This document shows, in pieces, positions 1,925 through 19,126 of a DNA stretch of 64,000 bases. Both the position numbers and the translations under genes were made by a program. The stretch comes from a virus. The stretch lies in the UHGV virus genome UHGV-0072281. One strand, written 5' to 3'. Every line of letters begins with the position of its first letter. Position 1 is the first letter of the stretch. The notes under the pieces are model-generated. The model worked only from the letters and a program-made list of their open reading frames with translations. It searched no databases and was not told where the DNA came from.

Positions 1925-1965
1925 TCGCTAAGTCAACTACTATAACAAAAAAAAACAATAAGTTT

Positions 1966-1998
1966 ACCTACCTCCTTTACGGAGGTAGGTATTTTTTA
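1966..1998. terminator. bidirectional intrinsic terminator between convergent genes
   Basis: acctacctcc-tttac-ggaggtaggt with A-run upstream and T-run downstream. Confidence 0.7.
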
Positions 1999-2670
1999 TT
2001 CTAATCCCATTTCCAGTGCAAGTGCACGGATAGTGTCGTAGTCACGCTGTTCAGCTAAGAGGCGAAGCTCTTTTTTCTGTGCGGTCATTTGTCCATGCAA
2101 CTTCTGATCACGTTTTACGATCTCGGACAATAATTCCTTACACTCTTCTAATGTAAAGGGTTCTAAACGTGTATTGGCGGTATCCAACCAATATTCTGGC
2201 GCAGTTTCAGATTGGATGTATTGCCCTAACATTTGTCGGGAGATTGCATCAGCCTGAAAATGACGTTCATTTAGCTGAATTGGTTCGTAACGTTGTGCTT
2301 CGTAACGCTTCTCCAACGCCATCATGATCTTTTGAACATCTAAATAAATATATCGTGCTGTTGAACGAACGTTACTTCGAATCTCATCCAGATCTATCTC
2401 CAATTTATCTGAAATGAACTCTTTTGCTTTTTTCAAGGTGAAATTTGCTTCAATATCTGACATATTGTAACTACGCATTTGATCTAACGCGTCTTCATCG
2501 GACATGCCGTCGAGTAGTTTGTAATGAAGCAGTGTACAAAAACCCGTTCTGCCGCGATCTTCAGTACCTATATGGCCCAAAAAGTTTCCGTGGCGATCAA
2601 TTGGGGAAAGTCGGCTAAAAAATCTGGCGCGAATATCTTCGTTTATTAAGCTTTTGTCAAGAGCAGGCAT
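1996..2670 (-). CDS. hypothetical protein (last gene of the radical SAM operon)
   Basis: 224 aa ORF; GGAGAAG SD before ATG; 25-nt overlap with upstream gene; followed by terminator hairpin. Confidence 0.6.
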   Translation of the reverse strand: MPALDKSLINEDIRARFFSRLSPIDRHGNFLGHIGTEDRGRTGFCTLLHYKLLDGMSDEDALDQMRSYNMSDIEANFTLKKAKEFISDKLEIDLDEIRSNVRSTARYIYLDVQKIMMALEKRYEAQRYEPIQLNERHFQADAISRQMLGQYIQSETAPEYWLDTANTRLEPFTLEECKELLSEIVKRDQKLHGQMTAQKKELRLLAEQRDYDTIRALALEMGLE

Positions 2671-3218
2671 TCGTCTTCTCCTTTAATTAAACCCAGCTCG
2701 ATCAGAAGATCAAAATCGATTTTACGAAACTTACTATCAAAATTTGAGTCCCAGTCAATATGTAGTCCTTGACGTTCGTCTTCTGTAAACTCGGGATAAA
2801 CTAAACTATGAAAAGTTTCCCTTTCATCGTAAAAACCATCGATGGTGGACTCTGGGTTTCGTGTGACATAAATTGTTACACCGGGAAACGATAAGCCTAG
2901 GGCGGCTACAGATTCAACACTCGGCTCTTGCAAAGCGCGTCGCAAAAGAACGATTTTATGTTTAGGGAATTCCAGCACGCGCTGTTCAAAACCTGGGTTT
3001 CGTTTCTCGATTTCAGCCACAGAAAGATCGGTAAGTTCTGTACAATACATCGGAATAACAACGGTAACTCCGTGACGAATTAATAATCGCTTAACATCGT
3101 CATTGAAATCTTCGCCGTTAATCTGTACATAACAGCCAAACAGTTTCGTAGTTTCTAAAAACTTTTCCAGAAAACGGAATTTACGCTTCGTAATATTGTG
3201 GATCAGAATTGGCTTCAT
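2646..3218 (-). CDS. hypothetical protein
   Basis: 190 aa ORF; start overlaps the 3' end of the SPASM-type radical SAM gene (operon coupling). Confidence 0.6.
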   Translation of the reverse strand: MKPILIHNITKRKFRFLEKFLETTKLFGCYVQINGEDFNDDVKRLLIRHGVTVVIPMYCTELTDLSVAEIEKRNPGFEQRVLEFPKHKIVLLRRALQEPSVESVAALGLSFPGVTIYVTRNPESTIDGFYDERETFHSLVYPEFTEDERQGLHIDWDSNFDSKFRKIDFDLLIELGLIKGEDECLLLTKA

Positions 3219-4503
3219 CTTTGGCTTCTCTCAATTGTTTTTCTTTCTGGGCGCGTTCACGTACACAGCGAGGACAGTAACACATGCTATTATCGTGAAA
3301 ATCCTTCACGGATGTTGTGCCCATTTTCTGCTTCCAATATTCCGCAACCATCAATTTTGCAGTTGTCCAACCACACTGACGACGTTCAGCGTGATATGCT
3401 TTACGGTCTTCTAACGTCCCTTCCCCATTCTCGTAGGAAGCTGCTGCACAGCTACCACAAGCGTGTTTCATTGGACAACCTAAGCACGTCTCAGGATAGT
3501 TGGTGTATTGCGTCTGAATCTCTTCCAGCAGTTTCCCACCGTCTAAACTAACGAATTCGCGACCGACTAACTCAAATACCGCAGAGCGTGACGTTACAGT
3601 CGACATGAAACGGTTACAACCGAAAATCTTCCTGTCAAACCCTAAACAAGTCATGTGCGTTAATGTCCCGCAGAACGGGCGCAAGCGTTCCGGGTTTAAA
3701 CGTACAGTATCGTTGTAAAGTAGCTGATCACGCCAGTTCGGTTCCCAGATAGTGTCGAAATCTAACCCTTCCGGGATGATATGCGAAAGGGTATTACGTG
3801 GGTTGGTGTGTAAACCCTTTTCAACCCAATAATCGACTACATCCATCATTTGTAGCGCTATCGACGTAGCCATACTCCGTGGCATAATGTCTTCGAAGGT
3901 TACGTTACCAGAAATGGTTCCACCTCCCGCCAAATCGATTAGGGATTTCATACCCGCCGCATAATGTGGGAGTGTCTCCAAAGTAAATGTCGCTTTAACC
4001 CCAAGCTCCGCGATACCTACTTCTTTTAGATAATTGTAACCACGTACAGCGGCCTCGTAGGAACCTTCGCGACTCGTTGTAAAAATACGGTACTTATCGT
4101 GCGACTCAGGTAACCCATCAATAGATACCCCGATAGAAAGTCTGTCCTTCCAACGTTCAATAATTTCCCTGTTCAACGGCCTATCTAATAATGTCCCATT
4201 AGTAGAGATACTAAACATAAACGGACGTTTATGTTCTTCACACAACTGCTCGGCTGTTTCGAAAGCAGTCATTAGAAGCTTAGGCTGCATAAACGGTTCA
4301 CCGCCGATAATGTCAATGATGACTTCTACGTTTGGTAAATCTTTATCGCGTTCAAAGCAGGCATGAAGAAAGTCTACAATATCCGCTGCTTTGTTATTGC
4401 GGGGATATTTACGCTCGTAACAATACTCACAGTCCAAATTACACGACAAGTTTGTAACAATCTGGTAAGTCAACTGTTTCGGGTAATTATTTTCTTGGTT
4501 CAT
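3181..4503 (-). CDS. radical SAM enzyme with SPASM-type C-terminal domain (peptide-modifying maturase family)
   Basis: N-terminal CNLDCEYC (CX3CX2C), GGEPFM SAM-binding motif, C-terminal CLGCPMKHACGSC (CX2CX5CX3C) plus further Cys. Confidence 0.8.
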   Translation of the reverse strand: MNQENNYPKQLTYQIVTNLSCNLDCEYCYERKYPRNNKAADIVDFLHACFERDKDLPNVEVIIDIIGGEPFMQPKLLMTAFETAEQLCEEHKRPFMFSISTNGTLLDRPLNREIIERWKDRLSIGVSIDGLPESHDKYRIFTTSREGSYEAAVRGYNYLKEVGIAELGVKATFTLETLPHYAAGMKSLIDLAGGGTISGNVTFEDIMPRSMATSIALQMMDVVDYWVEKGLHTNPRNTLSHIIPEGLDFDTIWEPNWRDQLLYNDTVRLNPERLRPFCGTLTHMTCLGFDRKIFGCNRFMSTVTSRSAVFELVGREFVSLDGGKLLEEIQTQYTNYPETCLGCPMKHACGSCAAASYENGEGTLEDRKAYHAERRQCGWTTAKLMVAEYWKQKMGTTSVKDFHDNSMCYCPRCVRERAQKEKQLREAKDEANSDPQYYEA

Positions 4504-5410
4504 TTAATACTCCACTATTACGGTTGGCCATAACCACTCGTCGAATATACTCGTAGGCTTCTAACCCGATGGAACAAGCTAATTGGTTACATCCCGATTC
4601 TAATAATCTCGGGGCATTTTGCAACTGATATTCGGTTCCATCTGCTCTTAACCATAAACTATTGCTGCATACGTTACACCCACCATCAAAAACTTTGCTT
4701 ACGACATAGTCACACCTTTTCGAGTTGGAAACATTCAGTCTTTCTATATTTTCCTGAATTCTAAAATACCCGTAAATAAAGTTCATAACGTGATCGGGAG
4801 ATAACGGTTTTGGCATATTTGCGTCTAACAGCAACGTCATGGTACGATAACCGTAGTGATAGATCGCATTATGAAGCTCAATAATGTCTTCATGCCACCG
4901 TTTGTTACCCAACTGTTCTCGAGTTAAAACGGCCCATGTATGAACATTTTCAAGCTCATGCATTACTTCTAAAGCTTCGTAGCAATCATCGCTAATAAAA
5001 CGCTTAAAAGGGCGTTCAGACAACTCAAACCCGTCGATGCTAACATATACGTTATCAAATTGTTTTAACAACGGTAGATGCGTTTTACGCATCTTTAAGC
5101 CATTGGTGTATAACTGATGTTTGAGTTCTGGGCGAACTGCTTTTAACTCGTCAACAAACGCCTCAATTTTACGAGTGGCTAACAAAGGCTCACCACCCGT
5201 CCATTGAATCTCGGTAATTGTTGGGTTAGCTTCTAACGCCTCCATAATTCGGTCACGTTGAAACTCTCGAGAAGAATCTTCACGATTCATGTAATAGGCT
5301 CCGCCGCAGAAACTACAGTCCAGATTACATTTGGATGTAGTAATAACGGCTAATATAGTTGGATTATCAAATAGCTGATCTGATAATTTTGGTTCCGCAT
5401 TGGTCGCCAT
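4487..5410 (-). CDS. radical SAM enzyme, paralog 2
   Basis: ITTSKCNLDCSFC (CX3CX2C), TGGEPLL motif, C-terminal Cys pairs; 17-nt overlap with downstream SPASM gene; paralog of 7018..7929. Confidence 0.75.
   Translation of the reverse strand: MATNAEPKLSDQLFDNPTILAVITTSKCNLDCSFCGGAYYMNREDSSREFQRDRIMEALEANPTITEIQWTGGEPLLATRKIEAFVDELKAVRPELKHQLYTNGLKMRKTHLPLLKQFDNVYVSIDGFELSERPFKRFISDDCYEALEVMHELENVHTWAVLTREQLGNKRWHEDIIELHNAIYHYGYRTMTLLLDANMPKPLSPDHVMNFIYGYFRIQENIERLNVSNSKRCDYVVSKVFDGGCNVCSNSLWLRADGTEYQLQNAPRLLESGCNQLACSIGLEAYEYIRRVVMANRNSGVLNEPRK
4733..4816. repeat. 84-bp segment identical to 7252..7335 (between radical SAM paralogs)
   Basis: Direct comparison: attcagtctttctatattttcctgaattctaaaatacccgtaaataaagttcataacgtgatcgggagataacggttttggcat at both sites; offset 2519 bp. 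Confidence 0.9.
5064..5110. repeat. 47-bp segment identical to 7583..7629
   Basis: tttaacaacggtagatgcgttttacgcatctttaagccattggtgta at both sites; same 2519-bp offset. Confidence 0.9.
5288..5347. repeat. 60-bp segment identical to 7807..7866
   Basis: catgtaataggctccgccgcagaaactacagtccagattacatttggatgtagtaataac at both sites (encodes the CX3CX2C region); same offset. Confidence 0.9.
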
Positions 5411-5432
5411 TGCAGGTGACTCCGTTAATTAT

Positions 5433-6320
5433 TTAATTATAGTCGATAGCGAACAATGGATCTTCGTCGAAATTGACTCCAGGTTTTAAAACCTTAGTCG
5501 AATTATACGCCTCTAGCAACCGATTAAGATCGTTATAACGACTATTCATTCTTTTGAGGTCTTCTAAGGTCACAATACGATCAAGCATCGGCTTAACGGC
5601 CTCGGCTTCTTCATCAGTCAATTCAACCTTAGACAACAAAAAACTAACAAGTTTAGAAATATCAGCCTCGGTTACTGGACTTTGGCCAAATCGTATTTGA
5701 ACAAGATGTTGCATCCATGGTTTACGAATACGCTTCGTAATAACATGCTCATCAGTAATGGCTTTCCAAACAGAACGTTCACGAATCCATTCGAACTTAT
5801 AGCTATAGGCCATTAAATCAGCTAAATGTGCAATCCCGAGGTCCTGATAACCTTCAATGTTGGTGTATGGTTCACTGTCGGAATACTCTTCAACATCCTT
5901 ACCAACAAGAGTATAGTAATACGGAAAAGCCCCCATGTAATCTGGACTCCACCATCTCCGAACCATAGGCTTAGCGTCAAGCTCAGCAAACGGTGTAAAA
6001 AAAAGTTCTAAATCGCTACCAGCATTTAGAACTCCGTCACTGAAGAAGTATTTACCATCAACAATCATTCCATAAAGTTCATCATCTCCTGTAAAAACTA
6101 TCACACGTTCGACCGGCAGATCACGAATTGTAAAAGTATTTTCTACAGAGATATTATCACGGTTGACGATATCACGACCCCGTAATTTCGGCCATTCGCC
6201 AGGTAGCATGGTAATTAAACGAACGTCGTCACTTAAATGATAACGTACAGAATCTGGAGAAGAGATTTGCAAAGGATGGTTAAATGTAGTGTTATATGCT
6301 AAATGTAAATCGTTTTTCAT
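5433..6320 (-). CDS. hypothetical protein inside the radical SAM cluster
   Basis: 295 aa ORF with AGAGGT SD; no recognisable motif. Confidence 0.6.
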   Translation of the reverse strand: MKNDLHLAYNTTFNHPLQISSPDSVRYHLSDDVRLITMLPGEWPKLRGRDIVNRDNISVENTFTIRDLPVERVIVFTGDDELYGMIVDGKYFFSDGVLNAGSDLELFFTPFAELDAKPMVRRWWSPDYMGAFPYYYTLVGKDVEEYSDSEPYTNIEGYQDLGIAHLADLMAYSYKFEWIRERSVWKAITDEHVITKRIRKPWMQHLVQIRFGQSPVTEADISKLVSFLLSKVELTDEEAEAVKPMLDRIVTLEDLKRMNSRYNDLNRLLEAYNSTKVLKPGVNFDEDPLFAIDYN

Positions 6321-6343
6321 TGAATACCTCTGACACGTTTCTA

Positions 6344-6553
6344 CTACTTATTACCGCCAGCACCACGGCTACAACTACCGCTACAGGACCAGCTACACCC
6401 ACCGTTACAGTTATAGTGACTCAACGGTAAACCAGAAAGGTTATTAGTGGACGACACCGTACCCTGGTTTGCAATATAGTTGTTTGCTCCTGCTGTGGTA
6501 ATGTATCCTTCCGCCGTTACTAATCTGTCGCGTATGTTTTTAAGACTTATCAT
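6344..6553 (-). CDS. short Cys-rich peptide C (leader + short core)
   Basis: 69 aa; leader MISLKNIRDRL similar to peptides A and B; core HYNCNGGCSWSCSGSCS; ATG 3 nt after the stop of peptide B. Confidence 0.6.
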   Translation of the reverse strand: MISLKNIRDRLVTAEGYITTAGANNYIANQGTVSSTNNLSGLPLSHYNCNGGCSWSCSGSCSRGAGGNK

Positions 6554-6556
6554 TTC

Positions 6557-6955
6557 TCATCTTCCCGTACACGATTGCGAACAGCCACCATGACAGGTAC
6601 GACTACATGTACCTGTACATGTAGTCGTACATTGACCTATACATGTCCCCGTGCACCCACCAGAACATGAACTAGTACAACCTGAACATCCAGAACTACA
6701 ACCAGAAACACAGTTTGCTGAACATGAGGAACCACAACCTCCAGAAGCATTACCGGTACAACCACCAGAACAACTGGAGCACGTCCAGCTACAGCTACCA
6801 CCACAGTCGTAATGATTTTTAGGTTGCCCGCCAAATAGGTCGACATTATTCGTAGCCTTTCCACGAATATAGTTCTGTACTGCTCCAGTGTTTTTTAGCG
6901 CGGAAGAATCTATATTATCCAAGCGCGCTTTTAAAGAAGATAAACCAATCGCCAT
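6557..6955 (-). CDS. Cys-rich CXXX-repeat peptide B (putative radical SAM substrate)
   Basis: 132 aa; about 50-aa leader, then DCGGSCSWTCS and ~20 Cys at 4-residue periodicity; AGGTG SD. Confidence 0.7.
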   Translation of the reverse strand: MAIGLSSLKARLDNIDSSALKNTGAVQNYIRGKATNNVDLFGGQPKNHYDCGGSCSWTCSSCSGGCTGNASGGCGSSCSANCVSGCSSGCSGCTSSCSGGCTGTCIGQCTTTCTGTCSRTCHGGCSQSCTGR

Positions 6956-7017
6956 TTTAACACCTACTGGTTCAGTGCCAGCTAAGGCACATTATAATTC
7001 ATTCTCTGTAAAAAATA

Positions 7018-7929
7018 TCACAATTTTGCCGGAATCCTATTCTTAGCCCCTACTACTCGTCGTATATAATCGTAAGCATCTAAGCCAACCTTTCTGGCTA
7101 AGTCACTACAGCCATGTTGCGTTACGATTTCAACGTTTTTTACTTGATTCTGGACACCGTCAGACTCGATACGTAAACAACGACTACATGTATTACAGGG
7201 TTCATCAAATAACGCGTTTAGCGTAAACGCGCACTCGCTTCGATTGGACGAATTCAGTCTTTCTATATTTTCCTGAATTCTAAAATACCCGTAAATAAAG
7301 TTCATAACGTGATCGGGAGATAACGGTTTTGGCATGTTTTTGTCCAAAACTAGCGACATCTCGCAAAAACCGTAATGGTAGATGTGATTATGTAGCGCAA
7401 TTATATCCTCATACCAGCGTTTATCACCGATACGTTCTCGTGTCAAGACTGCCCAGGTACGAATATTTTTCAATTCGTAAATTGTCTCCAACACCTCGTA
7501 TTGTTTTTCTTCGATAATCCGCATAAATGGACGCTCTGATTCTTTGAATCCGTCCATGCTAAAAAAGATGCTATCGAAACCCTTTAACAACGGTAGATGC
7601 GTTTTACGCATCTTTAAGCCATTGGTGTACAGGTAATGATCACAGCGAGGATACTTCTCCCTTATCTCTTCTATAAGGGCATCAATTTTACGCGAAGCGA
7701 GTAATGGTTCACCTCCCGACCACTGAATATTTGTGATGGTCGGGTTATTTTCCAGCGCCTCGATAATACTTTTCTTTTGTACTTCTGCGGTTGTATCCTC
7801 TCTATGCATGTAATAGGCTCCGCCGCAGAAACTACAGTCCAGATTACATTTGGATGTAGTAATAACATTTAACGTTCTTGGTTCAGAATACAATTGATCG
7901 GATACTGTCGGTGTGGTTAACTCTATCAT
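7018..7929 (-). CDS. radical SAM enzyme, paralog 1
   Basis: ITTSKCNLDCSFCGGAYYM (CX3CX2C), SGGEPLL; shares three blocks of identical DNA with 4487..5410. Confidence 0.75.
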   Translation of the reverse strand: MIELTTPTVSDQLYSEPRTLNVITTSKCNLDCSFCGGAYYMHREDTTAEVQKKSIIEALENNPTITNIQWSGGEPLLASRKIDALIEEIREKYPRCDHYLYTNGLKMRKTHLPLLKGFDSIFFSMDGFKESERPFMRIIEEKQYEVLETIYELKNIRTWAVLTRERIGDKRWYEDIIALHNHIYHYGFCEMSLVLDKNMPKPLSPDHVMNFIYGYFRIQENIERLNSSNRSECAFTLNALFDEPCNTCSRCLRIESDGVQNQVKNVEIVTQHGCSDLARKVGLDAYDYIRRVVGAKNRIPAKL

Positions 7930-7953
7930 CAGTAATAGTACCTATCTGTTAAA

Positions 7954-8346
7954 TTAAGTCGGTCCTGAACAAGACGCACATGCGCCACTACATCCCGAGC
8001 TACAACGCCCGGAGCATCTACCACTGCATGTAGCGCTGCAACCAGTGCACCCACCAGAACACGTAGCGCTGCAACCAGTGCATTGATTACCGCAGGCGGA
8101 TGAACAGCTTCCAACACACACTGAGGTGCACGTACCAGAACAACTTGTACAACCATGCGTACAACCGTTCGAGCACGTCCAGCTACAGCTACCACCACAG
8201 TCTAATCGACCCGGTGTCCAGCCTGAAAAAGAATCTGCGGCATTGTGAGCTTTTGATGCAACCTGTGGATCGACGCGGGGTCCTGTCGCCATTTGATTCT
8301 CTACGTTGGTGATTCGATCGCGAACGTTTTTAACACTAATCGCCAT
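7954..8346 (-). CDS. Cys-rich CXXX-repeat peptide A (putative radical SAM substrate)
   Basis: 130 aa; leader MAISVKNVRDRI, junction DCGGSCSWTCS, then CxxxC-periodic core; AAGGA SD. Confidence 0.7.
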   Translation of the reverse strand: MAISVKNVRDRITNVENQMATGPRVDPQVASKAHNAADSFSGWTPGRLDCGGSCSWTCSNGCTHGCTSCSGTCTSVCVGSCSSACGNQCTGCSATCSGGCTGCSATCSGRCSGRCSSGCSGACASCSGPT

Positions 8347-8358
8347 TCCGTATCCTTA

Positions 8359-8403
8359 AAATAAAAAAAGAGGAGGACTACGCCCATAAGCATAGTTCCT
8401 CCT
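8359..8403 (-). terminator. hairpin + U-tract after the tail-fibre gene, just upstream of peptide A
   Basis: Minus strand: aggaggaac...gtcctcct (bulged stem, long loop) then cttttttatttt; SD and ATG of peptide A follow within ~15 nt. Confidence 0.45.
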
Positions 8404-8412
8404 GTAATAAAG

Positions 8413-9618
8413 TTATTTCGTACCCGCTTCCGCCTGTACGTCATCACGAGACGTCAAGTTAGCGTTAACGTGTACTGGGGCCTGAACCACACCACCGTAT
8501 TTCTTGTGGAGATAACCGGTATGTGGGTTATCTGCCGCAATGTGGTTTTGTAGGTTCTGGTTCGCCTGACTGATTGCGTTCGTGTTGTTAGCAACTTGCT
8601 TTTTGAGCGCATCCAGGTTCTGTTGTAACTGATCGATTTTCTGATCGGTTTCTTGACCCTGTTGCTCTAACGCGTCAACACGCTGAATAACCTGATTCAG
8701 TTTCGTGTTCAAATCGTTAATGCTCTTTTGCAGCTGTAACACTAACGAGTTCAGGTTCGCTAACGCTAAAGCCATTTTCTGGTAGTTTTGAGCAACCACG
8801 TTAAGTTGGTCGTTCCACGCTTCCAGAGAGTTGACAACAGCGTCAATACGCTTACCTAAAGCTTCATCTGCTTTCTTCAGTGCATTGATTTCCGTAATCG
8901 TTGCGTCGATAGCAGACTGGACGTCACGAATAAGCGCACGGATTTCAGTTTCTGTTAACCCGTTAACCTGATGAATATCAAGATGGTGAACGTTACCGGT
9001 TGCGTTAATGTGTGCATTTAAAGCGTCTAAGAAGTCATTTTTCAGGCTTTCTAAAATCGCTTTAATGTTCTCTAACTGTACCGCGTCACCAGAACTGATC
9101 GCATCTTTAATACCCGCCAATACGGTAATGATATATTCAAAACCGTAAATATCACCTACGTCTTTATACGTCGGTGCAGAAGGGAATGTATCTGGTACGT
9201 TACGCAGGTCTTTAAACGCAACCGTACGGTTATCGAGGTTTAATTCAGCAATCGCCTGTTCGATAGCCACGATGTTCGCAGACTGTGGGCCACCAACGAC
9301 CTGCGCAGATACCGTAATATCTGTTGGAATCGCTGTGTTAGTGACCACCACCGCCATAACAATCTCGCGGTTTTTAGTCAGCTTTTCATAAGTCGGGTGT
9401 GCAAAAATCAACTCATAATCGGTACCACGTTCGTAGGTTGCATCCGGTCGGTTAGCAACGCGTAAACGGAACGTGTCCGCAAAGAACGGGCCGTCAGGAA
9501 AAGCAAAAGCACGGTTTACTTTACCTGTACCTAACGTAATCTGACGCTCCACAGCGTTAGACGTTAGCGAGCCCGTTAAATCTAAAGGATATTGATAAAC
9601 AATGGAGGCCATGGCCAC
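8413..9618 (-). CDS. tail fibre protein (coiled-coil rich)
   Basis: 401 aa; N-terminal FPDGPFF...GTDYEL motif shared with the three giant genes upstream; long heptad-like Q/N/L-rich segment. Confidence 0.6.
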   Translation of the reverse strand: MAMASIVYQYPLDLTGSLTSNAVERQITLGTGKVNRAFAFPDGPFFADTFRLRVANRPDATYERGTDYELIFAHPTYEKLTKNREIVMAVVVTNTAIPTDITVSAQVVGGPQSANIVAIEQAIAELNLDNRTVAFKDLRNVPDTFPSAPTYKDVGDIYGFEYIITVLAGIKDAISSGDAVQLENIKAILESLKNDFLDALNAHINATGNVHHLDIHQVNGLTETEIRALIRDVQSAIDATITEINALKKADEALGKRIDAVVNSLEAWNDQLNVVAQNYQKMALALANLNSLVLQLQKSINDLNTKLNQVIQRVDALEQQGQETDQKIDQLQQNLDALKKQVANNTNAISQANQNLQNHIAADNPHTGYLHKKYGGVVQAPVHVNANLTSRDDVQAEAGTK

Positions 9619-9652
9619 TCTCCTTTATTCGAGACGTCCTTGTCCCGAGTCA

Positions 9653-12600
9653 TTAAGATGTAAACATAAGATTGAACTGGAGTTTGTCGATATCGCGAGT
9701 TTCTGCTGGATTCACGCCGTCGTACGCGGTCGCTACGTAAACCGTTAGCGTACCGTCAGCGTACGAGGATATTACCGGTGGGTTAGTTCCGGTCTGACCA
9801 TCTCGCACAATGAGTGCAGGCTCGCTGGGAAGATTATCAAACTGCCCTTTAACCGCTTTGTATACCAAACCGGACTGTGCAGATAACTCCGTGTCTGTGT
9901 ACACACAGAACGGTGTATCGATGTCAGCTTGTTTGATAGTGGTACCGGATTCGACATCAACCAACTGTACTGCTCCAAACTTCGTGCGATAACTTTCATA
10001 TTCGTTCTTCGGAATAACAAAAGTAACGTGAACACGAACTTCTTCAGCGGGCTTAAAGCCAGTATGTTCTTTTTCCAAATACTGGTTGGCTGATAGTGTC
10101 ACTTTTTGTTCGGCCATCGAACCACCTGCCTGATTTATTCCGTACCGGGCTTCAACAATACCGGTTGGTGCAGCAAGTCGCAATTTCAGAGTCCGATTCG
10201 CCGTTCCTGGATTACCTGGCACTTGAACGCGCAAACTCAATGCTAAGTAAGCATACGTTCCGGTAGTCGGTTTCGTATACGCACCTATCCATTTCATGTT
10301 CGCAGACGCTGCCTGCGTGTTCTCAGAAGCAATGGCTGTCGTAATGTTAGCAGCTACCGCTTTCTGCCAGAATTGGTCGGCGCAGTTCTCATACGCTACT
10401 CTGGCCACGCTCTTATAACCCGAATACGTTTCCTGAATTGGTAACTTAGGACGCGTCGTGATGCCAGACAATGAACCCCATTTTTGACCGTCAACATACC
10501 CTTCGCCCTTCGACGCAGCCGCCGTAGGTGCTTTAACGGGCTTGTTAACCAGGGTTAATAGAGGACCCGTCTTTCTGTCAAACGCTGCTGCTACATCGTG
10601 TTGGTCGATAATTGCTGCGTGGTCTTCCAGCTCTTTCACACGACCCAAGCGTTTTACTTTGTCGATACTGATATCAGTAATACGGCTGGAATCGGTGGTT
10701 ACTGTCCCGACGAACAGTCTCGTTGAAGTATCGGCTAACTGCTCCAAACCGATGCGGTATTGTGCGGTAGAATCCGACACCTCAGCGTGCACGTAGAACG
10801 TCTGGTTAGCGTGATTGGACGGGAACTCGCTGCTTAAATCCACAGACCACGTTGGGAGTGTGTAGCTGCTGCTACCGAAGTCTAATTTGACTTCTTCTGT
10901 CAAATACAGAATCCAACCTTCCGCTGTCTCCACACCAGCAATAATAACCGCCTGACCACCGGTTGAGAACGTCGTGTCGTTAACGAACTCTGCGGCTGTA
11001 TACGCGTTACCTGAACAGAAAACACGGTCAGCTTTAGAGAAAATCAACGCCATCTTGTCCCAATTACCGGCACCCATATAGCATCCAGATTCTGGGTTAT
11101 GCGCAGGAGCCATCTGACGTAACTGCGACTTACCAGGAACGCGAGACCAACCTGAACCTGGGTCGTAGGTATACTTCGCGGCGTAACCTAGTGCGTTTAA
11201 GTCCCCGATATTTCGGATAGTTAACGTATAAGGTAGCCAGATACCGAAGTTAGTTCCATCCGCAGAAGCGAAAATAGGCTGTCCGACGCGACGGGTCTTA
11301 TTACCAGCCTCCTCTCTTAACGACTGATAACTTAAACCGTAGTCTTTATCCAGGAACCAATCCACCAACTTAAAGTTAGCGGAGTTGAACCGTAAGTAAC
11401 CATTCTCTTTAGATGGACTCACCATGAAGTAATAGATGTCAAGAATTCGACGACCGTTACTTAAGGTTTTCATGCACGAAACTTGCAACAAGTCAAATTC
11501 GCACACGGTGTTGATACCCAACATCCAAAGAGCAAACAATGCATTACCGGTTTGATGGGCAGCACTAATACGTTCGTTCGCGTATCCGTTCGCTTGGCCA
11601 GAAGGTGCACCGTCAACGATCATCCGAATCATTTTCTGTCGATCGGCTTCTTCTAGCGTTAAGCGTTCGGAAGACAACGCGAAGTTACCGTAGATGTTAC
11701 GATACGGGAACGTTTCTGCTTTGGTCAAATACCAACCGTTTAACTGTCCGTGACGCTCCTCAGGAGTCATGCACGCAGCCATACAGCTAAGCTGCTCATA
11801 TAGCGTTGGATCGACTTCACGACGGTTGTTGTTCGGACCGTATCCGCTATAACCCGGAACATCGTAAGGTTTGTTCGGATCAACTTCTACTTCGATGGTG
11901 TAACGGTTACGTGGGTTAGACATCCACACTTTGTTCGAACCACCAATCCCAACAGGATGGGAAAGACCAATGGTATAAATAGAACCACGACCTTTATCCC
12001 AGGTAAACGTTCCTTCGCCTGAGGTATTGTTTGGGTTATCGTAACGCAGATAATCGAAAAATTCTTTGCCTTGTGTTCCTTTAATAGAAACGTTAGGCAT
12101 TTGGTCCGCGTCGTTAATCTGCCAGCAGGAAAGCATCATTCCTGTTCCATTAGGCTTAGCGTACGTTGCAAAACAACGATTGTTTGCTTGACCACCGCCC
12201 CACTTACGGCTGGTTTCTACAGTTGAACCATCCGCGAAAGAGAGTGTAGTAGCATCAGCCTTGATGGGAAAGCGTTCGCGGCCTTCTAACGTAACCTTGC
12301 CCGTCGACGTATCGATTGTAAAACTTGTTGCCCACTGACGAAAGTTAATTTGTGAGCTGTCAGCCGCTGCAAACCACACAGTAGGCATATGGTTCACACG
12401 AATCACGCCGTCGCGCACTGCACAAGCATGGTTACATTCTGGACCGTGAACAAAGTTGCAACCAATTGTCCATTTAGCCCGTGCTTCCGGCGTCAAATAC
12501 GTAAAGAACTGACCCGTTTGTGACTCTTCGGTTTTCTGGCCAATGCGTAGGCAGAGGTTATCTCCGAATTGTCCCATCTCCCCGTTTAGTGTTACGCGTT

Positions 12601-14836
12601 CAAACTCCAGCGTGGTGCTAGTAGACAAATCGTCCTTACGTAGACGCCAAGCTGCTACTGCGTAAGCAGAGTTATTTACCGTAGAGCGGAGAAGATAAAC
12701 GTAATCCTCAACCAACACAACATCATCGGCTTCTGGCCACGGATTCCAGGTTTGTTCCACAGTACCGCTGGGGTTGCCGTTACGGTACACGGGCATCGTA
12801 ACGCGACATACCACCGTGTGTTTAGTGTGATCCATCGAACCATTAAACAACACCAAATAACGGTTATTATCAGAACCCAGACAAATAATCGCTTCCTGAC
12901 CACCGATCAATATAGCTTTCAGGGTCACTCCAGGATATTTACTCATCCCGGCAGGGTGATATTTCACTGAGGTCTGCTGCGGATTTACAAACGCGTTTGA
13001 CGTGTTAATGTCAGCATAGCCGTAATAAATGGCTTCTGTACCCGGTACGCCGTTAGAACCGTTACGGAGCGAATAAACCTTACCCTGCTGATACCCAACA
13101 ACCCCTTTTTGATAAGACTGGTTTTTGGTATAACCCGAATAGTTACCTAGCGCTGGGATAGGTAAGAAGTTCTTGTTACCGAACTTCGCACCACCTACCG
13201 TCCACGCCGGTAAGATGGTATTCAGTTTATCAGAGACTTTCTTAATCTCTTTTGCGAACAGCCACCCTTGACGCGACGTGACAGCTTTATCGTTAGTAGT
13301 GTCAATCGCATCCCAGAGCTGCAAGATACCGTCAACCGATGCACTACCAATTGGAATGTTATCCAAGTCAGCAGTGGTGTGTGTATGCGTCTTCAAACTC
13401 TTGTTTTTCAACACGTTCGTTAACGCTTTCGTCACCGGCTTAGCACTTGGCGTGGTGTTATCCATCTTATCGGTACCGAAATCGGTTTTCGTTAAGGTTA
13501 ACACCATACTGTCGCCTACCTTAACAAACCCTTTACCGTTAACGGTATAGTCATCGTCAACGTACAGGTCCAAGCGGTCTTTTAATTCGGTTACGGCTTT
13601 CTGGGAGATAGCAGTACCTAACGCCGCAGACGTGGAGATATTCGTAATCGAGAACAACCCATAAACTGATTCGGTCGCTGTGGGAATATTCGCGTTTAAC
13701 GTAACCGGGTTAGTCTGTTTTGCGGTACCGTACGGTTTTACAGTGTCTGACGCTTTGAAATACGCGTTTGCTTCGAGCAACGTTACTGACGTCAGGTACA
13801 TGTTCACCATTTCTGGCGTAACCAGATACACGGAGTTATAAACCGGCGCTAATACATCCTGTTCTGACCCCGAGTGAACCCAAAGCGTATTCAGACCCGC
13901 ACTGAATTCAACCGCTAAACCTGATTCGTTGTTGTCCTGGTCTGCTTTAATCACCAACGGTTGTGGCGAGGTAATTAACCACTTATCACCGCGAATACTG
14001 ATGATGTGGCCACCTGACGTTTTAAACGTTAATTCAATACCGTTAGTAGTGCCCCATCGACCGTAAACAGTACCGAGGGCTTCACCCATTAACTGGTCAA
14101 CGTCTGATTGCTCAATACCCGCTGAACCCATCAGCGTAGCCAACTCGTCAATCGTCAACCCAAACGCTTTTGTAGCGTCAACAGCGCGGCCTAATACCGG
14201 GAGAGCAGCAATGTCGTCAGTGGTATAATGATGAGCGTTAGGATTCCGGTGGTGTTGGTATAACTCTTCGTCGAAAACCTTTTTACCGTTCTCGTAAATC
14301 AGGTTAGTAACTTCACTAAACGCAGCATCTAACTCTGTAGAACGCTTAATGATTTTCTTACGAATGTCTTCTAACGCCTTAACAACCTCATCTCTCAGAA
14401 TAGCTTCTTCTAAGTTAGCAGGCGGGTCGATTGGTTGAATAACCGGCGCATACGCCATTAGTTCAGACCAGTCCACGTTACGTGGGTCTTTCAGGTCAGT
14501 ACGAACTAAGAACTTCCCGATTTCAGATTGCGGTACACGATATTGACGTGCTACCCCTAAAATCTCATATTCGATTTCTGTTGCAGTAAGCAACATAAAC
14601 CCGCCGTAAATCTGATCTTGTTCAGCTTCTGCGAGTTCTTTAAAGTAATAGCCTAAATAGTAGTCCAACCCCTCAATCAGAGTACGACGTCCGTTAGGCG
14701 CGGTATCGTCGGCTACTGTGAGTTTTAATCCGATACGATAAAAAGGTCCTTCAGGTGGAATGACCACGTTAAATCGGTTAGGGTACGTTGCTGTGCTTAG
14801 CGTACCGTTAAACTGCGCCGCGTCTTCTCTCGGCAT
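9653..14836 (-). CDS. large tail fibre / tailspike-like structural protein
   Basis: 1727 aa uninterrupted ORF; N-terminal PEGPFY...GLDYYL motif; Gly/Ser/Thr/Asn-rich. Confidence 0.6.
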   Translation of the reverse strand: MPREDAAQFNGTLSTATYPNRFNVVIPPEGPFYRIGLKLTVADDTAPNGRRTLIEGLDYYLGYYFKELAEAEQDQIYGGFMLLTATEIEYEILGVARQYRVPQSEIGKFLVRTDLKDPRNVDWSELMAYAPVIQPIDPPANLEEAILRDEVVKALEDIRKKIIKRSTELDAAFSEVTNLIYENGKKVFDEELYQHHRNPNAHHYTTDDIAALPVLGRAVDATKAFGLTIDELATLMGSAGIEQSDVDQLMGEALGTVYGRWGTTNGIELTFKTSGGHIISIRGDKWLITSPQPLVIKADQDNNESGLAVEFSAGLNTLWVHSGSEQDVLAPVYNSVYLVTPEMVNMYLTSVTLLEANAYFKASDTVKPYGTAKQTNPVTLNANIPTATESVYGLFSITNISTSAALGTAISQKAVTELKDRLDLYVDDDYTVNGKGFVKVGDSMVLTLTKTDFGTDKMDNTTPSAKPVTKALTNVLKNKSLKTHTHTTADLDNIPIGSASVDGILQLWDAIDTTNDKAVTSRQGWLFAKEIKKVSDKLNTILPAWTVGGAKFGNKNFLPIPALGNYSGYTKNQSYQKGVVGYQQGKVYSLRNGSNGVPGTEAIYYGYADINTSNAFVNPQQTSVKYHPAGMSKYPGVTLKAILIGGQEAIICLGSDNNRYLVLFNGSMDHTKHTVVCRVTMPVYRNGNPSGTVEQTWNPWPEADDVVLVEDYVYLLRSTVNNSAYAVAAWRLRKDDLSTSTTLEFERVTLNGEMGQFGDNLCLRIGQKTEESQTGQFFTYLTPEARAKWTIGCNFVHGPECNHACAVRDGVIRVNHMPTVWFAAADSSQINFRQWATSFTIDTSTGKVTLEGRERFPIKADATTLSFADGSTVETSRKWGGGQANNRCFATYAKPNGTGMMLSCWQINDADQMPNVSIKGTQGKEFFDYLRYDNPNNTSGEGTFTWDKGRGSIYTIGLSHPVGIGGSNKVWMSNPRNRYTIEVEVDPNKPYDVPGYSGYGPNNNRREVDPTLYEQLSCMAACMTPEERHGQLNGWYLTKAETFPYRNIYGNFALSSERLTLEEADRQKMIRMIVDGAPSGQANGYANERISAAHQTGNALFALWMLGINTVCEFDLLQVSCMKTLSNGRRILDIYYFMVSPSKENGYLRFNSANFKLVDWFLDKDYGLSYQSLREEAGNKTRRVGQPIFASADGTNFGIWLPYTLTIRNIGDLNALGYAAKYTYDPGSGWSRVPGKSQLRQMAPAHNPESGCYMGAGNWDKMALIFSKADRVFCSGNAYTAAEFVNDTTFSTGGQAVIIAGVETAEGWILYLTEEVKLDFGSSSYTLPTWSVDLSSEFPSNHANQTFYVHAEVSDSTAQYRIGLEQLADTSTRLFVGTVTTDSSRITDISIDKVKRLGRVKELEDHAAIIDQHDVAAAFDRKTGPLLTLVNKPVKAPTAAASKGEGYVDGQKWGSLSGITTRPKLPIQETYSGYKSVARVAYENCADQFWQKAVAANITTAIASENTQAASANMKWIGAYTKPTTGTYAYLALSLRVQVPGNPGTANRTLKLRLAAPTGIVEARYGINQAGGSMAEQKVTLSANQYLEKEHTGFKPAEEVRVHVTFVIPKNEYESYRTKFGAVQLVDVESGTTIKQADIDTPFCVYTDTELSAQSGLVYKAVKGQFDNLPSEPALIVRDGQTGTNPPVISSYADGTLTVYVATAYDGVNPAETRDIDKLQFNLMFTS

Positions 14837-14857
14837 CGTAAAGACTCCTACTTTTTA

Positions 14858-14894
14858 AATAAAATGGATACCCCTCCCCATTACAGGGAGGGGT
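14858..14894 (-). terminator. hairpin between the 1394-aa and 1727-aa fibre genes
   Basis: Minus strand: cccctccc-tgtaat-ggggaggg followed at ~8 nt by ttttattt. Confidence 0.45.
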
Positions 14895-14931
14895 TACCTA
14901 CGGACACACAACTGCCCGCAGGCAGCCTGTC

Positions 14932-17900
14932 CTAAGTACGATCCCCTAACTGCTTCCCGTTAAGTTCTCGTTTCAGTACAGAAAGTATCCATTTCCACGC
15001 TTTACTCGTGATATGGTACGGATTGCGTTTCTCCATTAAGAACTGCTTTTCACCGCTACGCAGTTCAAAGCTCTGCGCATTAAGGTAGTCCTGACGATAG
15101 ATTTTCTCATCAAAAACTTCCAATGAACAGGTAAAGTTAAGTTCGTACCCTTCAGGATTATTACCCGGCGGGTCTAAGACAATATAGATGTCCTGGCCTA
15201 CACGTAAATCCGTTGGAGTGATGGTAATCGCTTTACCCACATCGGCGTTAGTCGACAGAGCAAACTCCGCACTGTCCGTAGACGCTAAGAATGGGTCTTT
15301 CCCTGCGTCGCCAATAATCACTTTACCTGGCCAGTTACTTTTTATCGTTCCCGTCACTTTTGCAATTCGATATTGCTGTTTATCAACACCTTGTGCAAAA
15401 CGGAGAATGAGTTTGTGACGATAACGACTTGCAGCAACCTTAGTCGTACTCCACACATTGTTCCAGGAAGTGTGCAGTTCATTGTTCTTCGCCATCAACG
15501 CACCACGAGACAGTTTACGGTCAAAGAACTGCGCAGGTAACTGCCCATCGTGAGAAACCGCAACACTTCCCTGACCAGTTGGCAAGGCAATGCTCTCCGT
15601 GGCACGGTATTTTTGACTAATCTCATAAGTCGCAGGGTCAATCACAGACTGACTATAATCAGCGTCTTTGTTATCAGCCAAATACCCAACGGATGAATCC
15701 AGATACGACTCAAACAACGAACGTAAGTAATGATACTTATCAATGTCGATATTGTTCGTAACCGGATCAATCAGTGCGTGGCTAATCGTTACTCGGCATT
15801 TCGCGCTCAGTTCTTTAAACGATAATCCTATTCCGTCACCGGTGAAATAATCCACTAAGTCGAACGGGAATTGAATTTCCAACTGACGTTGTTTAACTGT
15901 CGTCGTCCCAAACTGCGAGAACGACAACGCTAAACGTAACACACGCGTACTTACGTTATAACGGTAACGAATCATCCCACGAGGTGCATGGTTTGCAGAG
16001 ATTTTATCTCGGGCGGCGCCCCAGCCAATCAAATCGAGAATCGCAGCATTCGTTTCTTCACCGTTGAACAACACATCCTTAAACGTTGCATTCACCGCTG
16101 TTTCCCCAGACTCTTCCATTACCAACGGAATGTCAGTAACGGCAGAATCTGAACGGGAACCAATCCCCAGCTTACACGCTTTGGCAGTTAGGTCAATGCG
16201 CAGATAGCGACGTTTAACGCTACTCCCTTGCGTTGACGAGCATAGAACCAAATCCGGCGCAGCAGCAAGGGCTTGCGTCCCACCAACATCGTCAACATCG
16301 AATGCAAACGAGCCTTCGAAAGTCGGTGCGTTGTTTTCTTTCGGGTTAAACGGTGTAAACCAACAATACGGCGTAGCACCTTCAGGTATCACAACGTATT
16401 GAAGACTGGATTTCACGTTTTGGTTGTGTGCGTAAGTATAAAGACCGCGACTGACAAGATGGAAAACATCACCTGTACCGGCTGTTAACGCTTTCCTAAA
16501 GATACACGCTCTCGGTTCGGCAATAGCACGGTTTAATAACGGCAAACGTGGGTTATCCGTTAGCGTCCAGTCCACAGAACTGAGTCCGTGCGCTTTACGA
16601 GTGTCGATGTGTTCACTAACCTCGGCACTTTTCCCGAAATCGAACGTGGTTTCGAACCCAACTGTTTTATTCGCGTAATTCTCACCAGCAACAATATCAA
16701 CGTAACCGATATAACCACGTTCAGGATCAACTGCGATGCTCTGAATAGGTTCAGCACGCGAATATAGAGAGCCTGTGAGCATGTTAACGTACAGATAGTG
16801 ACGAATCCCTACGTGGGTTGTAACAAACTCCTGGAGAAGCTCTACGCGCGTTTCAGGGCCACTGAAGTAAACAGGGTAATCACCGTCGTAAACTTCAAAT
16901 TGCACAGCTGCTGATTTTGCAGTGTCACTGCATTCTGCTTTAACAGCGATTGTGTAATTTTCAACATCTAACGACGTTGTGTAGTTCATTAACAACGGAG
17001 ATTCACCGGTAGCGGCCACAACACCATTTACATAAATGGTTATCCTTCCACCGCCAGCGGCGTAAACAAACAGCCTATTCTGATAAGCTTTGACCCGTAT
17101 TTTAGCCAACACTGATACAACGGACTGTTCACCCATCTGTGTAGCGCTTTTACCTACCGGAACTGACTGAAACCCCATTGTTGGAGGATCAACAATTCCA
17201 TCCCAACTAATCCCAGTACCTCTACTAACTTTCCCCGTAGGCCAAGTCAGCTCAAGCTGGTTGTTCGGTGAGAACCAGTTAAACATCGGGGTGGTTTGTA
17301 AGTCAATCGCACCAGTAACGACACCGTCGGCCTTTCCTCCATTCAGCAAATAGAAGTATTTCAAATCCTGAACGGAGATTGTCGTACCCTGGCTATTAAA
17401 ACGCCAGTCTGCGCCTTTTACAGCAGCGAAATCAGTTACTGTTCCTTCTTTCGCGTTTGCTATCGCAGCGGCCACCACATCTAAACGTGCTGAAAGCTCT
17501 TTTAAGATGTTCGGTACCACTGCTCGGTTTTCAACTAAACCGTTCTGGTTAGTTGCGTAACGGCCAATACCGTAAATAGACTGCGAGGCTTTATAAATGC
17601 CTAACTCTGACCAGCCGTGATGGTGGCCGACATCTGCTAAACCGCTAACCGATGTATTCAATGCGGTAGACAACGGTTTGTCAAGGTCTGCGGTGTTGTC
17701 CGCTTGCCCTAATCCCAGATCGGCTTTCGTGATTGTCCTGGAACCGTCGTCCATCGCTTTACCGTTAATCATGGTCGTTTTAGTCACGTACCCTGATAAG
17801 TCGGTTGAATACGGCGTTAATGACGCAGGGGTTGCAGCAACCCCAACCGTTTCTGTGCCTTTACCGGTTTTAAGTTTAACGACACCTTTTTCAGTGGTTG

Positions 17901-19116: not shown

Positions 19117-19126
19117 AAAATTCTCC

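Follow-up and report, generated by a model that had tools for sequence, protein, structure and literature searches.

A nine-gene cluster in a 64,000-nucleotide stretch of the virus genome UHGV-0072281 (hereafter, the window) encodes three proteins with a cysteine at every fourth residue (pepA, pepB and pepC), two paralogous small radical S-adenosylmethionine (SAM) enzymes (rSAM-a and rSAM-b), one radical SAM/SPASM enzyme of 440 residues and three proteins of unassigned function, one of which, a 295-residue protein, is designated the partner. By sequence homology, pepA, pepB and pepC are free-standing copies of a module of ~130 residues that forms the C-terminus of tail fibres. The best explanation of the cluster, which we hold with moderate confidence, is that it serves the maturation of tail fibres by introducing covalent cross-links, which are probably thioethers. 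A preliminary description had instead likened it to the clusters that make peptides synthesized on ribosomes and modified after translation (RiPPs). A protein-level search identified the window as a new relative of SPN3US, a jumbo phage of Salmonella (Seoulvirus), with further relatives among the jumbo phages of Erwinia, Cronobacter, Proteus and Escherichia.

The cysteine module and the ends of tail fibres

The four-residue cysteine periodicity noted in the preliminary description was borne out by the spacing, which was exactly 4 in 16 of the 20 intervals of pepA, 16 of 19 in pepB and 3 of 3 in pepC. In 10,000 shuffles of the cores, the observed spacing was equalled 0 times for pepA, 0 times for pepB and 8 times for pepC. 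pepA has ~49 N-terminal residues, a junction (...CGGSCSWTCS) and 21 cysteines in C-x3 register, while pepB has 20 cysteines. The N-terminal region and the junction (CNGGCSWSCSGSC) of pepC are as in pepA and pepB, but there are only 4 cysteines; pepC is a minimal version of the fibre C-terminal module, and its orthologues in SPN3US and in Erwinia phage pEa_SNUABM_29 are 68 residues long. The repeat unit was C-(S/T)-G-(S/T/G), with Ser or Thr at position x1 in 74% of the units, and neither Asp nor Glu occurred in any of the repeat cores. No tandem repeat was found at the DNA level beneath the cysteine repeats.

Every aligned cysteine was kept in the jumbo-phage orthologues, which represent seven lineages with 50-73% amino acid identity (pepA 21 of 21, once 20 of 20; pepB 20 of 20). 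Moreover, the codon differences to one of the relatives (locus L007) comprised 61 synonymous and 33 non-synonymous changes. The retention of the cysteines and the many codon differences that are synonymous only indicate that the pepA and pepB frames are real genes under purifying selection.

Both pepA and pepB matched phrog_6085 (E 2e-40 and 1e-38, respectively) over positions 1-128 of 129. The models for CXXX-repeat precursors, against which the peptides were to be compared according to the preliminary description, gave weak matches at most: pepB reached 17.0 and 16.8 bits with TIGR04114 and TIGR04117 (cut-offs 20 and 50, E about 5e-3), pepC reached 11.8 and 9.8 bits, likewise below the cut-offs, and pepA gave no match. 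A profile built from pepA and pepB was then searched against 1.84 billion representative proteins (E<=1e-3) and returned 243 protein clusters. Many of the matches were proteins of 200-560 residues in which profile positions ~6-130 were aligned with a region that runs to the C-terminus. Ahead of this region come Gly-X-Y repeats of the collagen type, coiled coils rich in Ala or fibre repeats of the sequence 'YGLVKFAT'. When 87 module-bearing proteins were scanned, 84 matched phrog_6085, and among the 25 most frequent of the 39 PHROGs, all the others with an assigned function were tail fibre, tail, tail collar or tail spike families. Examples of the fused module are found at loci L003, L004, L017 and L166, described below, and in proteins P0221, P0228, P0229, P0231, P0244 and P0295. 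The junction motif N(A/V)xxLxGxxxx(Y/H)YxCxxCSW(T/S)C is common to pepA, pepB, pepC and the fibre ends. The earlier picture of a leader followed by a core was not sustained, as the whole peptide, including its N-terminal 45-50 residues, aligned with the C-terminal ~130 residues of long tail-fibre proteins. What was taken for a leader thus belongs, as a conserved part, to a structural module and is not disposable.

The closest relatives of the SPASM enzyme outside the jumbo phages (35-40% identity) lie in prophage tail modules. In the P2-like prophage of Campylobacter pinnipediorum (L004), the order of the genes was gpW, gpJ, gpI, a 384-residue PF12571 tail fibre, a 250-residue partner, the SPASM enzyme, a small radical SAM enzyme, DUF1353, sheath and tube, and the C-terminus of the fibre consisted of cysteine repeats (...GCNGCSGSCSGSCSSGCTACSGCSGSCSG...). 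The lambda-like prophage of Deferribacter abyssi (L003) has GpJ, a 302-residue fibre with HxH repeats that ends in ...KATNADQLGGQAGSYYRCSDCSWTC... / ...KATNADQLGGQAGSYYRCSDCSWTCSSSCTGSC..., a 250-residue partner, a small radical SAM enzyme and the SPASM enzyme. The 250-residue proteins of both prophages are homologous to the 295-residue partner of the window, and their small radical SAM enzymes are homologous to rSAM-b. A jumbo contig (L017) encodes a 568-residue fibre ending in ...NAVTLGGQPPDFYTCGGSCSWSC..., followed by small radical SAM enzymes, a 224-residue partner and the SPASM enzyme. A further P2-like prophage (L166) was found with a seed for the cysteine module (an alignment of four sequences) and not with the enzyme; it was the single locus returned, probably as a result of the low-complexity filter of tblastn. 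Its genes encode Baseplate_J, Tail_P2_I, a collagen-like 401-residue fibre with the cysteine module, a small radical SAM enzyme, the partner, the SPASM enzyme and the sheath.

Some variation was observed among these loci. A small radical SAM gene of L017 is split into two open reading frames (3065-3280 and 3307-3780) by a frameshift or a sequencing error, and a 472-residue protein of the same contig (4565-5983) has a second small radical SAM domain and an extra C-terminal domain. In the long proteins P0210-P0217 (1582-1803 residues), the C-terminal cysteine-repeat region extends over ~450 residues, and the module profile matches it up to 11 times.

The radical SAM enzymes and the breadth of their class

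All three enzymes were found to be intact and to belong to the peptide- or protein-modifying radical SAM class. The motifs ascribed to them are present, CNLDCSFC in both small enzymes, CNLDCEYC in the 440-residue enzyme, where this CX3CX2C motif occupies residues 21-28, and GGEP in all three; Pfam Radical_SAM was matched by each (E 2e-13, 1e-13 and 2e-14). The 440-residue enzyme also carries the CX2CX5CX3C motif (CLGCPMKHACGSC). An alignment of 19 sequences of its family revealed seven invariant cysteines in the SPASM region (C278, C296, C340, C343, C349, C352 and C377), and the Pfam SPASM model was not reported for this enzyme in the Pfam scan. An extra C-terminal CYCPRC (residues ~410-416) and a charged tail were seen only in the jumbo-phage enzymes; the prophage homologues are shorter (385-400 residues) and have neither.

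The 440-residue enzyme had been likened to the maturases of CXXX-repeat peptides. TIGR04115, which represents that class, was indeed its best NCBIfam family, but the score of 120.2 bits (E 1.3e-34) was far below the cut-off of 350. The PapB family came second with 112.9 bits against a cut-off of 340, nearly equal to the TIGR04115 score. A CXXX-repeat protein next to the SPASM enzyme, the other mark of the class, is present, as pepA, pepB and pepC are in one operon with the enzyme. The closest solved sequence was that of CteB (5wgg, E 8e-11). An assignment to an unrelated radical SAM family such as QueE or NrdG, named beforehand as evidence against the proposal, did not emerge, since the QueE-, NrdG- and MoaA-type matches scored 35-50 bits, far under the cut-offs.

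The two small enzymes, rSAM-a and rSAM-b, are paralogues with 63% identity, and neither matches a specific family. Three C-terminal cysteines are conserved in their family (C245, C248 and C274 in rSAM-b), an arrangement compatible with one auxiliary cluster. The structures nearest to the predicted model of the small enzyme were CteB, TigE, ChlB, anSME, SuiB, SkfB and PqqE, and EpeE/YydG was also among the neighbours. The rSAM-a copy is confined to the lineage of the window; in SPN3US, pEa_SNUABM_29 and the other jumbo phages, no such gene separates the homologues of pepA and pepB. Two proteins (P0174 and P0179) were mosaic-like, with an rSAM-a-like N-terminus and an rSAM-b-type C-terminus, which suggests recombination between the paralogues.

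The partner is the fourth conserved component of the core. Its structure was predicted with confidence (predicted local distance difference test score 87), and a comparison with the PDB and BFVD found no relative and neither a winged-helix nor another known fold. It is presumed to be a substrate-presenting or assembly factor.

A scan of IMG/VR with the enzyme alignment yielded 79 viral loci, of which 76 had an adjacent open reading frame with cysteine repeats on the same strand, encoding 65-940 residues and up to 63 cysteines. On the strength of this association, the cysteine-repeat proteins are almost certainly the substrates of the enzymes. Upstream of them, among 33 neighbours from 20 diverse loci, nearly every most-matched family with an assigned function was a tail fibre, tail or baseplate family. 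At L034, for instance, the order was baseplate wedge, baseplate protein, fibre-like protein, cysteine protein, SPASM enzyme and a second fibre-like protein.

The more distant enzymes of this set (Tier-2) were on other viral metagenome contigs, and the few GenBank matches at that distance came from human faeces. Bona fide TIGR04115 members occur among them (L041 with 471 bits, L020 with 429 bits), others being borderline (291-346 bits), and the Tier-2 loci have no small radical SAM enzyme and no partner. The setting of these loci, L034 included, is again one of tail genes. A leader shared between the N-terminal region of the peptides and the N-terminal domain of the classical (Tier-2) CXXX proteins was considered and rejected, as the similarity amounted to 1.4 bits and was no better than that of shuffled sequences. 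A phmmer comparison of the 401-residue gp167 homologue, encoded directly upstream of pepA, with the proteins upstream of the Tier-2 cysteine proteins found no similarity; three of the latter match the same broad PHROG family as the gp167 homologue. A similar scan of bacterial genomes returned mostly generic SPASM enzymes, and CXXX proteins were present at 9 of 80 loci, in a mixture of prophage and transporter-linked settings. One of the nine, the prophage L091, encodes Baseplate_J together with an Mtd_N/DUF2793 fibre. The radical SAM enzymes of Campylobacter CP220-type and Vibrio nt-1-type phages matched the N-terminal core only and were judged unrelated.

Two further observations concern the fibre regions of these loci. 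A reverse transcriptase gene (10617-11891) lies near the CXXX/SPASM module of L034, and the L091 protein with Mtd_N and DUF2793 (2388-3464) is of the fibre type targeted by diversity-generating retroelements. On account of these two cases, the fibre region may be both hypervariable and enzymatically modified.

Relation to phage SPN3US and layout of the cluster

No match to the cluster was found among GenBank phages by megablast, while IMG/VR contained a near-identical contig (L014, 224,831 bp). The SPASM enzyme is 83.5% identical to gp163 of SPN3US, where gp163 and gp164 are annotated merely as 'putative radical SAM superfamily protein 1/2'. The cluster had been described as lying downstream of tail-fibre genes, and the upstream genes (8413-23452) proved to be orthologous to the virion, baseplate and tail-fibre proteins gp167-gp170, with identities of 77% for gp167, 49% for gp168, 47% for gp169 and 40-67% for gp170. 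The fibre and baseplate proteins are thus less conserved (47-49% identity to gp168/gp169) than the enzymes (~83%), as would be expected if the fibres track the host range while the maturation machinery is conserved.

In SPN3US, gp168-170 are low-copy virion proteins that are missing in a tailless mutant (PMC5105663, PMC5694885), and they, the tail protein gp168 among them, resemble gp131 of phiKZ, which sits at the baseplate's periphery (PMC5105663). The virion proteome lists gp160 and gp167-170 and does not list gp161-166, that is, the enzymes and three neighbours (PMC5694885). The cysteine genes of SPN3US (L001, NC_027402) are at 6094-6486, 6497-6901 and 6917-7123, and those of pEa_SNUABM_29 (L002) are at 6130-6522, 6532-6933 and 6946-7152. 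The annotated gp166 of SPN3US (ACQ60_gp100, 111 residues) was called in the wrong frame and covers the pepB homologue, and neither the pepA nor the pepC homologue has an annotation. Where pEa_SNUABM_29 has its pepA and pepB homologues, the annotation shows antisense open reading frames instead. There is consequently an annotation gap, the substrate genes being missing or in the wrong frame in both reference genomes examined, and as these genes are unannotated in SPN3US, proteomics could not have detected the cysteine proteins.

All nine co-oriented minus-strand genes (8346..1996) given in the preliminary description were found (Table 1). Overlaps occur at three junctions (4503/4487, 3218/3181 and 2670/2646), with small gaps elsewhere in the cluster. 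The hairpin at its 3' boundary is terminator-like and faces convergent plus-strand genes. A second hairpin followed by a T-run (8377-8396), between the gene for the 401-residue virion protein and pepA, may be an attenuator or terminator that separates the expression of the fibre genes from that of the maturation genes. A scan for sigma-70 promoters gave 19 hits against 17.8 expected, which is background, and was not used. The genes for the 190-residue and DUF4376 proteins overlap, are translationally linked to those of the enzymes and are conserved only in the jumbo-phage clade; the DUF4376 protein has a weak match to a tail-fibre PHROG (E 0.006). Whether these two proteins are members of the system is uncertain.

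Table 1. Features of the cluster and of the genes adjoining it (window coordinates)
Feature	Position	Strand	Length	Assignment
pepA	7954-8346	minus	130 aa	open reading frame
rSAM-a	7018-7929	minus	303 aa	small radical SAM enzyme
pepB	6557-6955	minus	132 aa	open reading frame
pepC	6344-6553	minus	69 aa	open reading frame
partner protein	5433-6320	minus	295 aa	phrog_8030; SPN3US gp165
rSAM-b	4487-5410	minus	307 aa	SPN3US gp164
radical SAM/SPASM enzyme	3181-4503	minus	440 aa	SPN3US gp163
190-residue protein	2646-3218	minus	190 aa	function unassigned; phrog_7988; SPN3US gp162
DUF4376 protein	1996-2670	minus	224 aa	SPN3US gp161; PF14301 E 1.4e-6
terminator-like hairpin	1965-1991			perfect 11 bp with T-runs; between convergent gene sets
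coiled-coil virion protein	8413-9618	minus	401 aa	SPN3US gp167, 77% identity; directly upstream of pepA
three large paralogues	9653-23452	minus	1727, 1394, 1441 aa	orthologues of SPN3US gp168, gp169, gp170; baseplate/tail-fibre candidates

Convergent with the cluster are three tandem paralogues on the plus strand (202-768, 820-1359 and 1394-1924) of 188, 179 and 176 residues, which end in ...NGELDGF... and have gp160 as their SPN3US homologue. This protein belongs to 'paralog family B', is abundant in the virion and was placed in the head by the SPN3US authors.

Proposed fibre maturation, alternatives and related systems

Of the three fates suggested in the preliminary description, action inside the cell, release at lysis and incorporation into the virion, the evidence favours incorporation. 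The module, a segment of ~45 residues followed by the junction and the C-(S/T)-G-(S/T/G) repeats and fused in other phages to long fibre proteins, would be modified post-translationally in the cytoplasm of the infected cell by the partner, the small radical SAM enzymes and the SPASM enzyme. Modification in the cell by the partner and the enzymes is suggested because the genes are strictly linked across unrelated phage types. By means of a 5'-deoxyadenosyl radical, and with the help of its auxiliary Fe-S clusters, the SPASM enzyme would bond the sulfur of each Cys to a carbon in a neighbouring residue. The thioether staples so formed would make up a ladder, either within a single chain or, more speculatively, between the chains of a trimer. 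We infer the thioether chemistry by analogy with CteB, PapB, SkfB and QhpD. As the repeat units have no Asp or Glu, acceptors of the PapB type are excluded, leaving Ser, Thr, Gly or a C-alpha, as in SCIFF or the sactipeptides; the Thr or Ser side chain or the C-alpha is the more likely acceptor. Speculatively, the small enzyme with its three-cysteine C-terminal motif might add a second modification or handle a subset of the sites, and rSAM-a might be dedicated to pepA. With neither a protease nor an exporter in the cluster, the modified proteins would be retained and probably built into the gp167-gp170-type baseplate and fibre apparatus, where the modules could serve as a rigid tip or connector resistant to reduction and to proteases. 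The enzymes would stay outside the virion, in keeping with their absence from that of SPN3US.

Several observations weigh against this explanation, 1) thioether formation is extrapolated from relatives with 16-30% identity, 2) the SPASM enzyme scores below the curated cut-offs of every named family, 3) the attachment of the free-standing peptides to the gp167-170 fibres is putative, 4) the partner has no recognisable fold, so that its role is a guess, 5) the cysteine proteins were not seen in virions, although this is not a negative result as their reading frames were outside the SPN3US search database, 6) two bacterial CXXX loci (L097 and L111) have genes for ATPases or transporters of the ATP-binding cassette (ABC) type nearby together with several short peptides and look like conventional secreted RiPP systems and 7) the jumbo contig L019 (279 kb) has the four-gene core (4883-8074) with a 97-residue peptide of 3 cysteines (…GCESCAMGCHGPQ) and no adjoining fibre genes. 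The core of L019, which follows a SNF2-type helicase, is the single clear departure from the fibre setting. The transporter contexts of L097 and L111 imply that the enzyme class is not exclusively linked to fibres and serves both settings; the clade of the window is the fibre-linked one with four components.

The last two points are those to be expected of a diffusible RiPP, in which a leader of ~49 residues would precede a modified cysteine core, and the product would leave the cell at lysis or work within it as a toxin, a signal or an anti-defence agent. The several short cysteine peptides beside the ABC-type genes of L097 and L111 and the short 3-cysteine peptide of L019 in its non-fibre setting fit such a product, as does the presence in the window of short cysteine-rich reading frames adjoining radical SAM/SPASM enzymes with TIGR04115 as the best family. 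It is nevertheless quite improbable for the window, where the supposed leader has its homologue in the interior of long fibre proteins and most neighbours by far are tail genes; moreover, the same enzymes follow, in at least four other lineages, a fibre protein that has the cysteine module as its C-terminus. In keeping with the preliminary description, no transporter or peptidase family was matched by any of the nine products (NCBIfam, Pfam and PHROG), and no RiPP recognition element (RRE) domain was matched either, in the nine products or in the fold search with the partner. The RiPP label thus applies to the maturase-type enzymes with cysteine-repeat substrates and not to the RRE, protease and exporter of a RiPP system in the strict sense. 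Another proposal sees in the enzymes the products of auxiliary metabolic or host-takeover genes, with targets in the host, that adjoin the cysteine-rich frames and fibre genes incidentally; it draws on the unrelated radical SAM genes of other phages. The co-occurrence of the cysteine-repeat frames at 76 of the 79 loci, the conservation of the four-gene core across jumbo, P2-like and lambda-like phages and the peptide- and protein-modifying enzymes among the structural neighbours make it highly implausible.

A structural fibre domain that undergoes a different chemistry is unlikely as well but is a serious alternative to the thioether step. The candidates are binding of a metal or Fe-S cluster, formylglycine oxidation of the anSME type, epimerisation and C-C cross-linking. 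No family cut-off was reached, the structural neighbours of the small enzymes include anSME, SuiB, PqqE and the epimerase EpeE/YydG, and a cross-link could involve the conserved Trp of the CSW(T/S)C junction. Other phage fibres have metal sites on their three-fold axis, such as the His-x-His iron sites of T4 gp37. The invariance of every cysteine fits either chemistry, while the best relatives of the SPASM enzyme are thioether-forming or cysteine-targeting maturases (TIGR04115, PapB, CteB, SCIFF and QhpD), which argues for thioethers. A different chemistry would affect this step alone and would leave the main conclusion, enzymatic maturation of the fibre module, intact.

The wider proposition, that tail fibres carry a ladder of thioether (or other covalent) staples made by radical SAM enzymes and that much of the 'CXXX-repeat RiPP' class is a widespread fibre maturation system, is advanced tentatively, at slightly less than an even chance. 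Tail fibres determine the choice of host by a phage, and engineering for phage therapy is aimed mainly at them. If correct, the proposition would give a biological role to a large uncharacterised 'RiPP' family and would provide a new class of modification, the first case in which a structural protein of a virion is modified after translation by enzymatic radical chemistry, in a system widespread in gut, enterobacterial, Campylobacter and environmental phages. The staples may set the stability of the fibres and hence the host range in reducing, protease-rich habitats. Fibres expressed without the enzymes, or in hosts poor in Fe-S clusters, may misfold or fail, and this dependence would affect the heterologous production of receptor-binding proteins and the swapping of host ranges. 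The dedication of RiPP-type maturases to host-recognition fibres across unrelated phage types would be a surprise. SPN3US is a genetically tractable model with published proteomes and mutants and thus an immediate test system.

In the open-access literature, no paper was found that links radical SAM/SPASM enzymes to tail fibres or describes the cysteine module, which is not proof of absence. The cluster is not categorically new, as the superfamily is known, a nearby class has been defined in silico and orthologues have been deposited since 2011. In gp163 and gp164 of SPN3US and their Erwinia and Cronobacter orthologues, gene order is as in the window and identity is 60-84%; these clusters differ in having no extra small radical SAM enzyme between pepA and pepB and in that their substrates are unannotated or mis-framed. 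The uncharacterised CXXX-repeat systems of TIGR04115, TIGR04114 and TIGR04117, defined in silico, likewise have a radical SAM/SPASM enzyme adjoining proteins with a cysteine at every fourth residue. In contrast, the enzyme of the window is in a divergent sister clade, always accompanied by a small second radical SAM enzyme and a partner of 250-295 residues, the window peptides show no relationship in their N-terminal region to the N-terminal domain of the classical CXXX proteins, and the tail-fibre context is not part of the description under the NCBIfam name TIGR04115.

PapB introduces Cys-to-Asp/Glu thioethers into the CX3D/E motifs of the ranthipeptide freyrasin (PMC9413430, PMC12373016). 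The likeness lies in the multiple cysteines at i/i+4 spacing, each of which makes a small thioether ring in the PapB substrate; the difference is that the PapB substrate is a peptide from which the leader is cleaved, whereas that of the window would be a retained protein module. CteB, the SCIFF maturase (PDB 5WGG), forms a thioether from Cys to the C-gamma of Thr, has an N-terminal RRE domain and acts on a short peptide with six cysteines. Unlike CteB, the enzyme of the window has no RRE, and its radical SAM motif starts at residue 21.

The position of the genes recalls gpG/Tfa of P2 and gp38/gp57A of T4, non-virion helpers that occupy the same genomic slot after the fibre gene and are needed to finish the fibre. 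In L004 and L166, the radical SAM genes and the partner gene come after the fibre gene and before the sheath gene. However, the enzymes of the window have no sequence relation to these helpers, which are chaperones and, to our knowledge, are not redox enzymes; we know of no requirement for redox enzymes in the maturation of tail fibres. The enzymatic counterpart is the QhpD/QhpC system, where the gamma subunit of quinohemoprotein amine dehydrogenase receives several Cys-Asp/Glu thioethers from a radical SAM/SPASM enzyme. TIGR03906 was among the matches of the window enzyme, weakly (57 bits), and the acceptor residues and the biology differ. QhpD is nevertheless a precedent for a SPASM enzyme that staples a protein which then stays as a structural subunit of a larger assembly.

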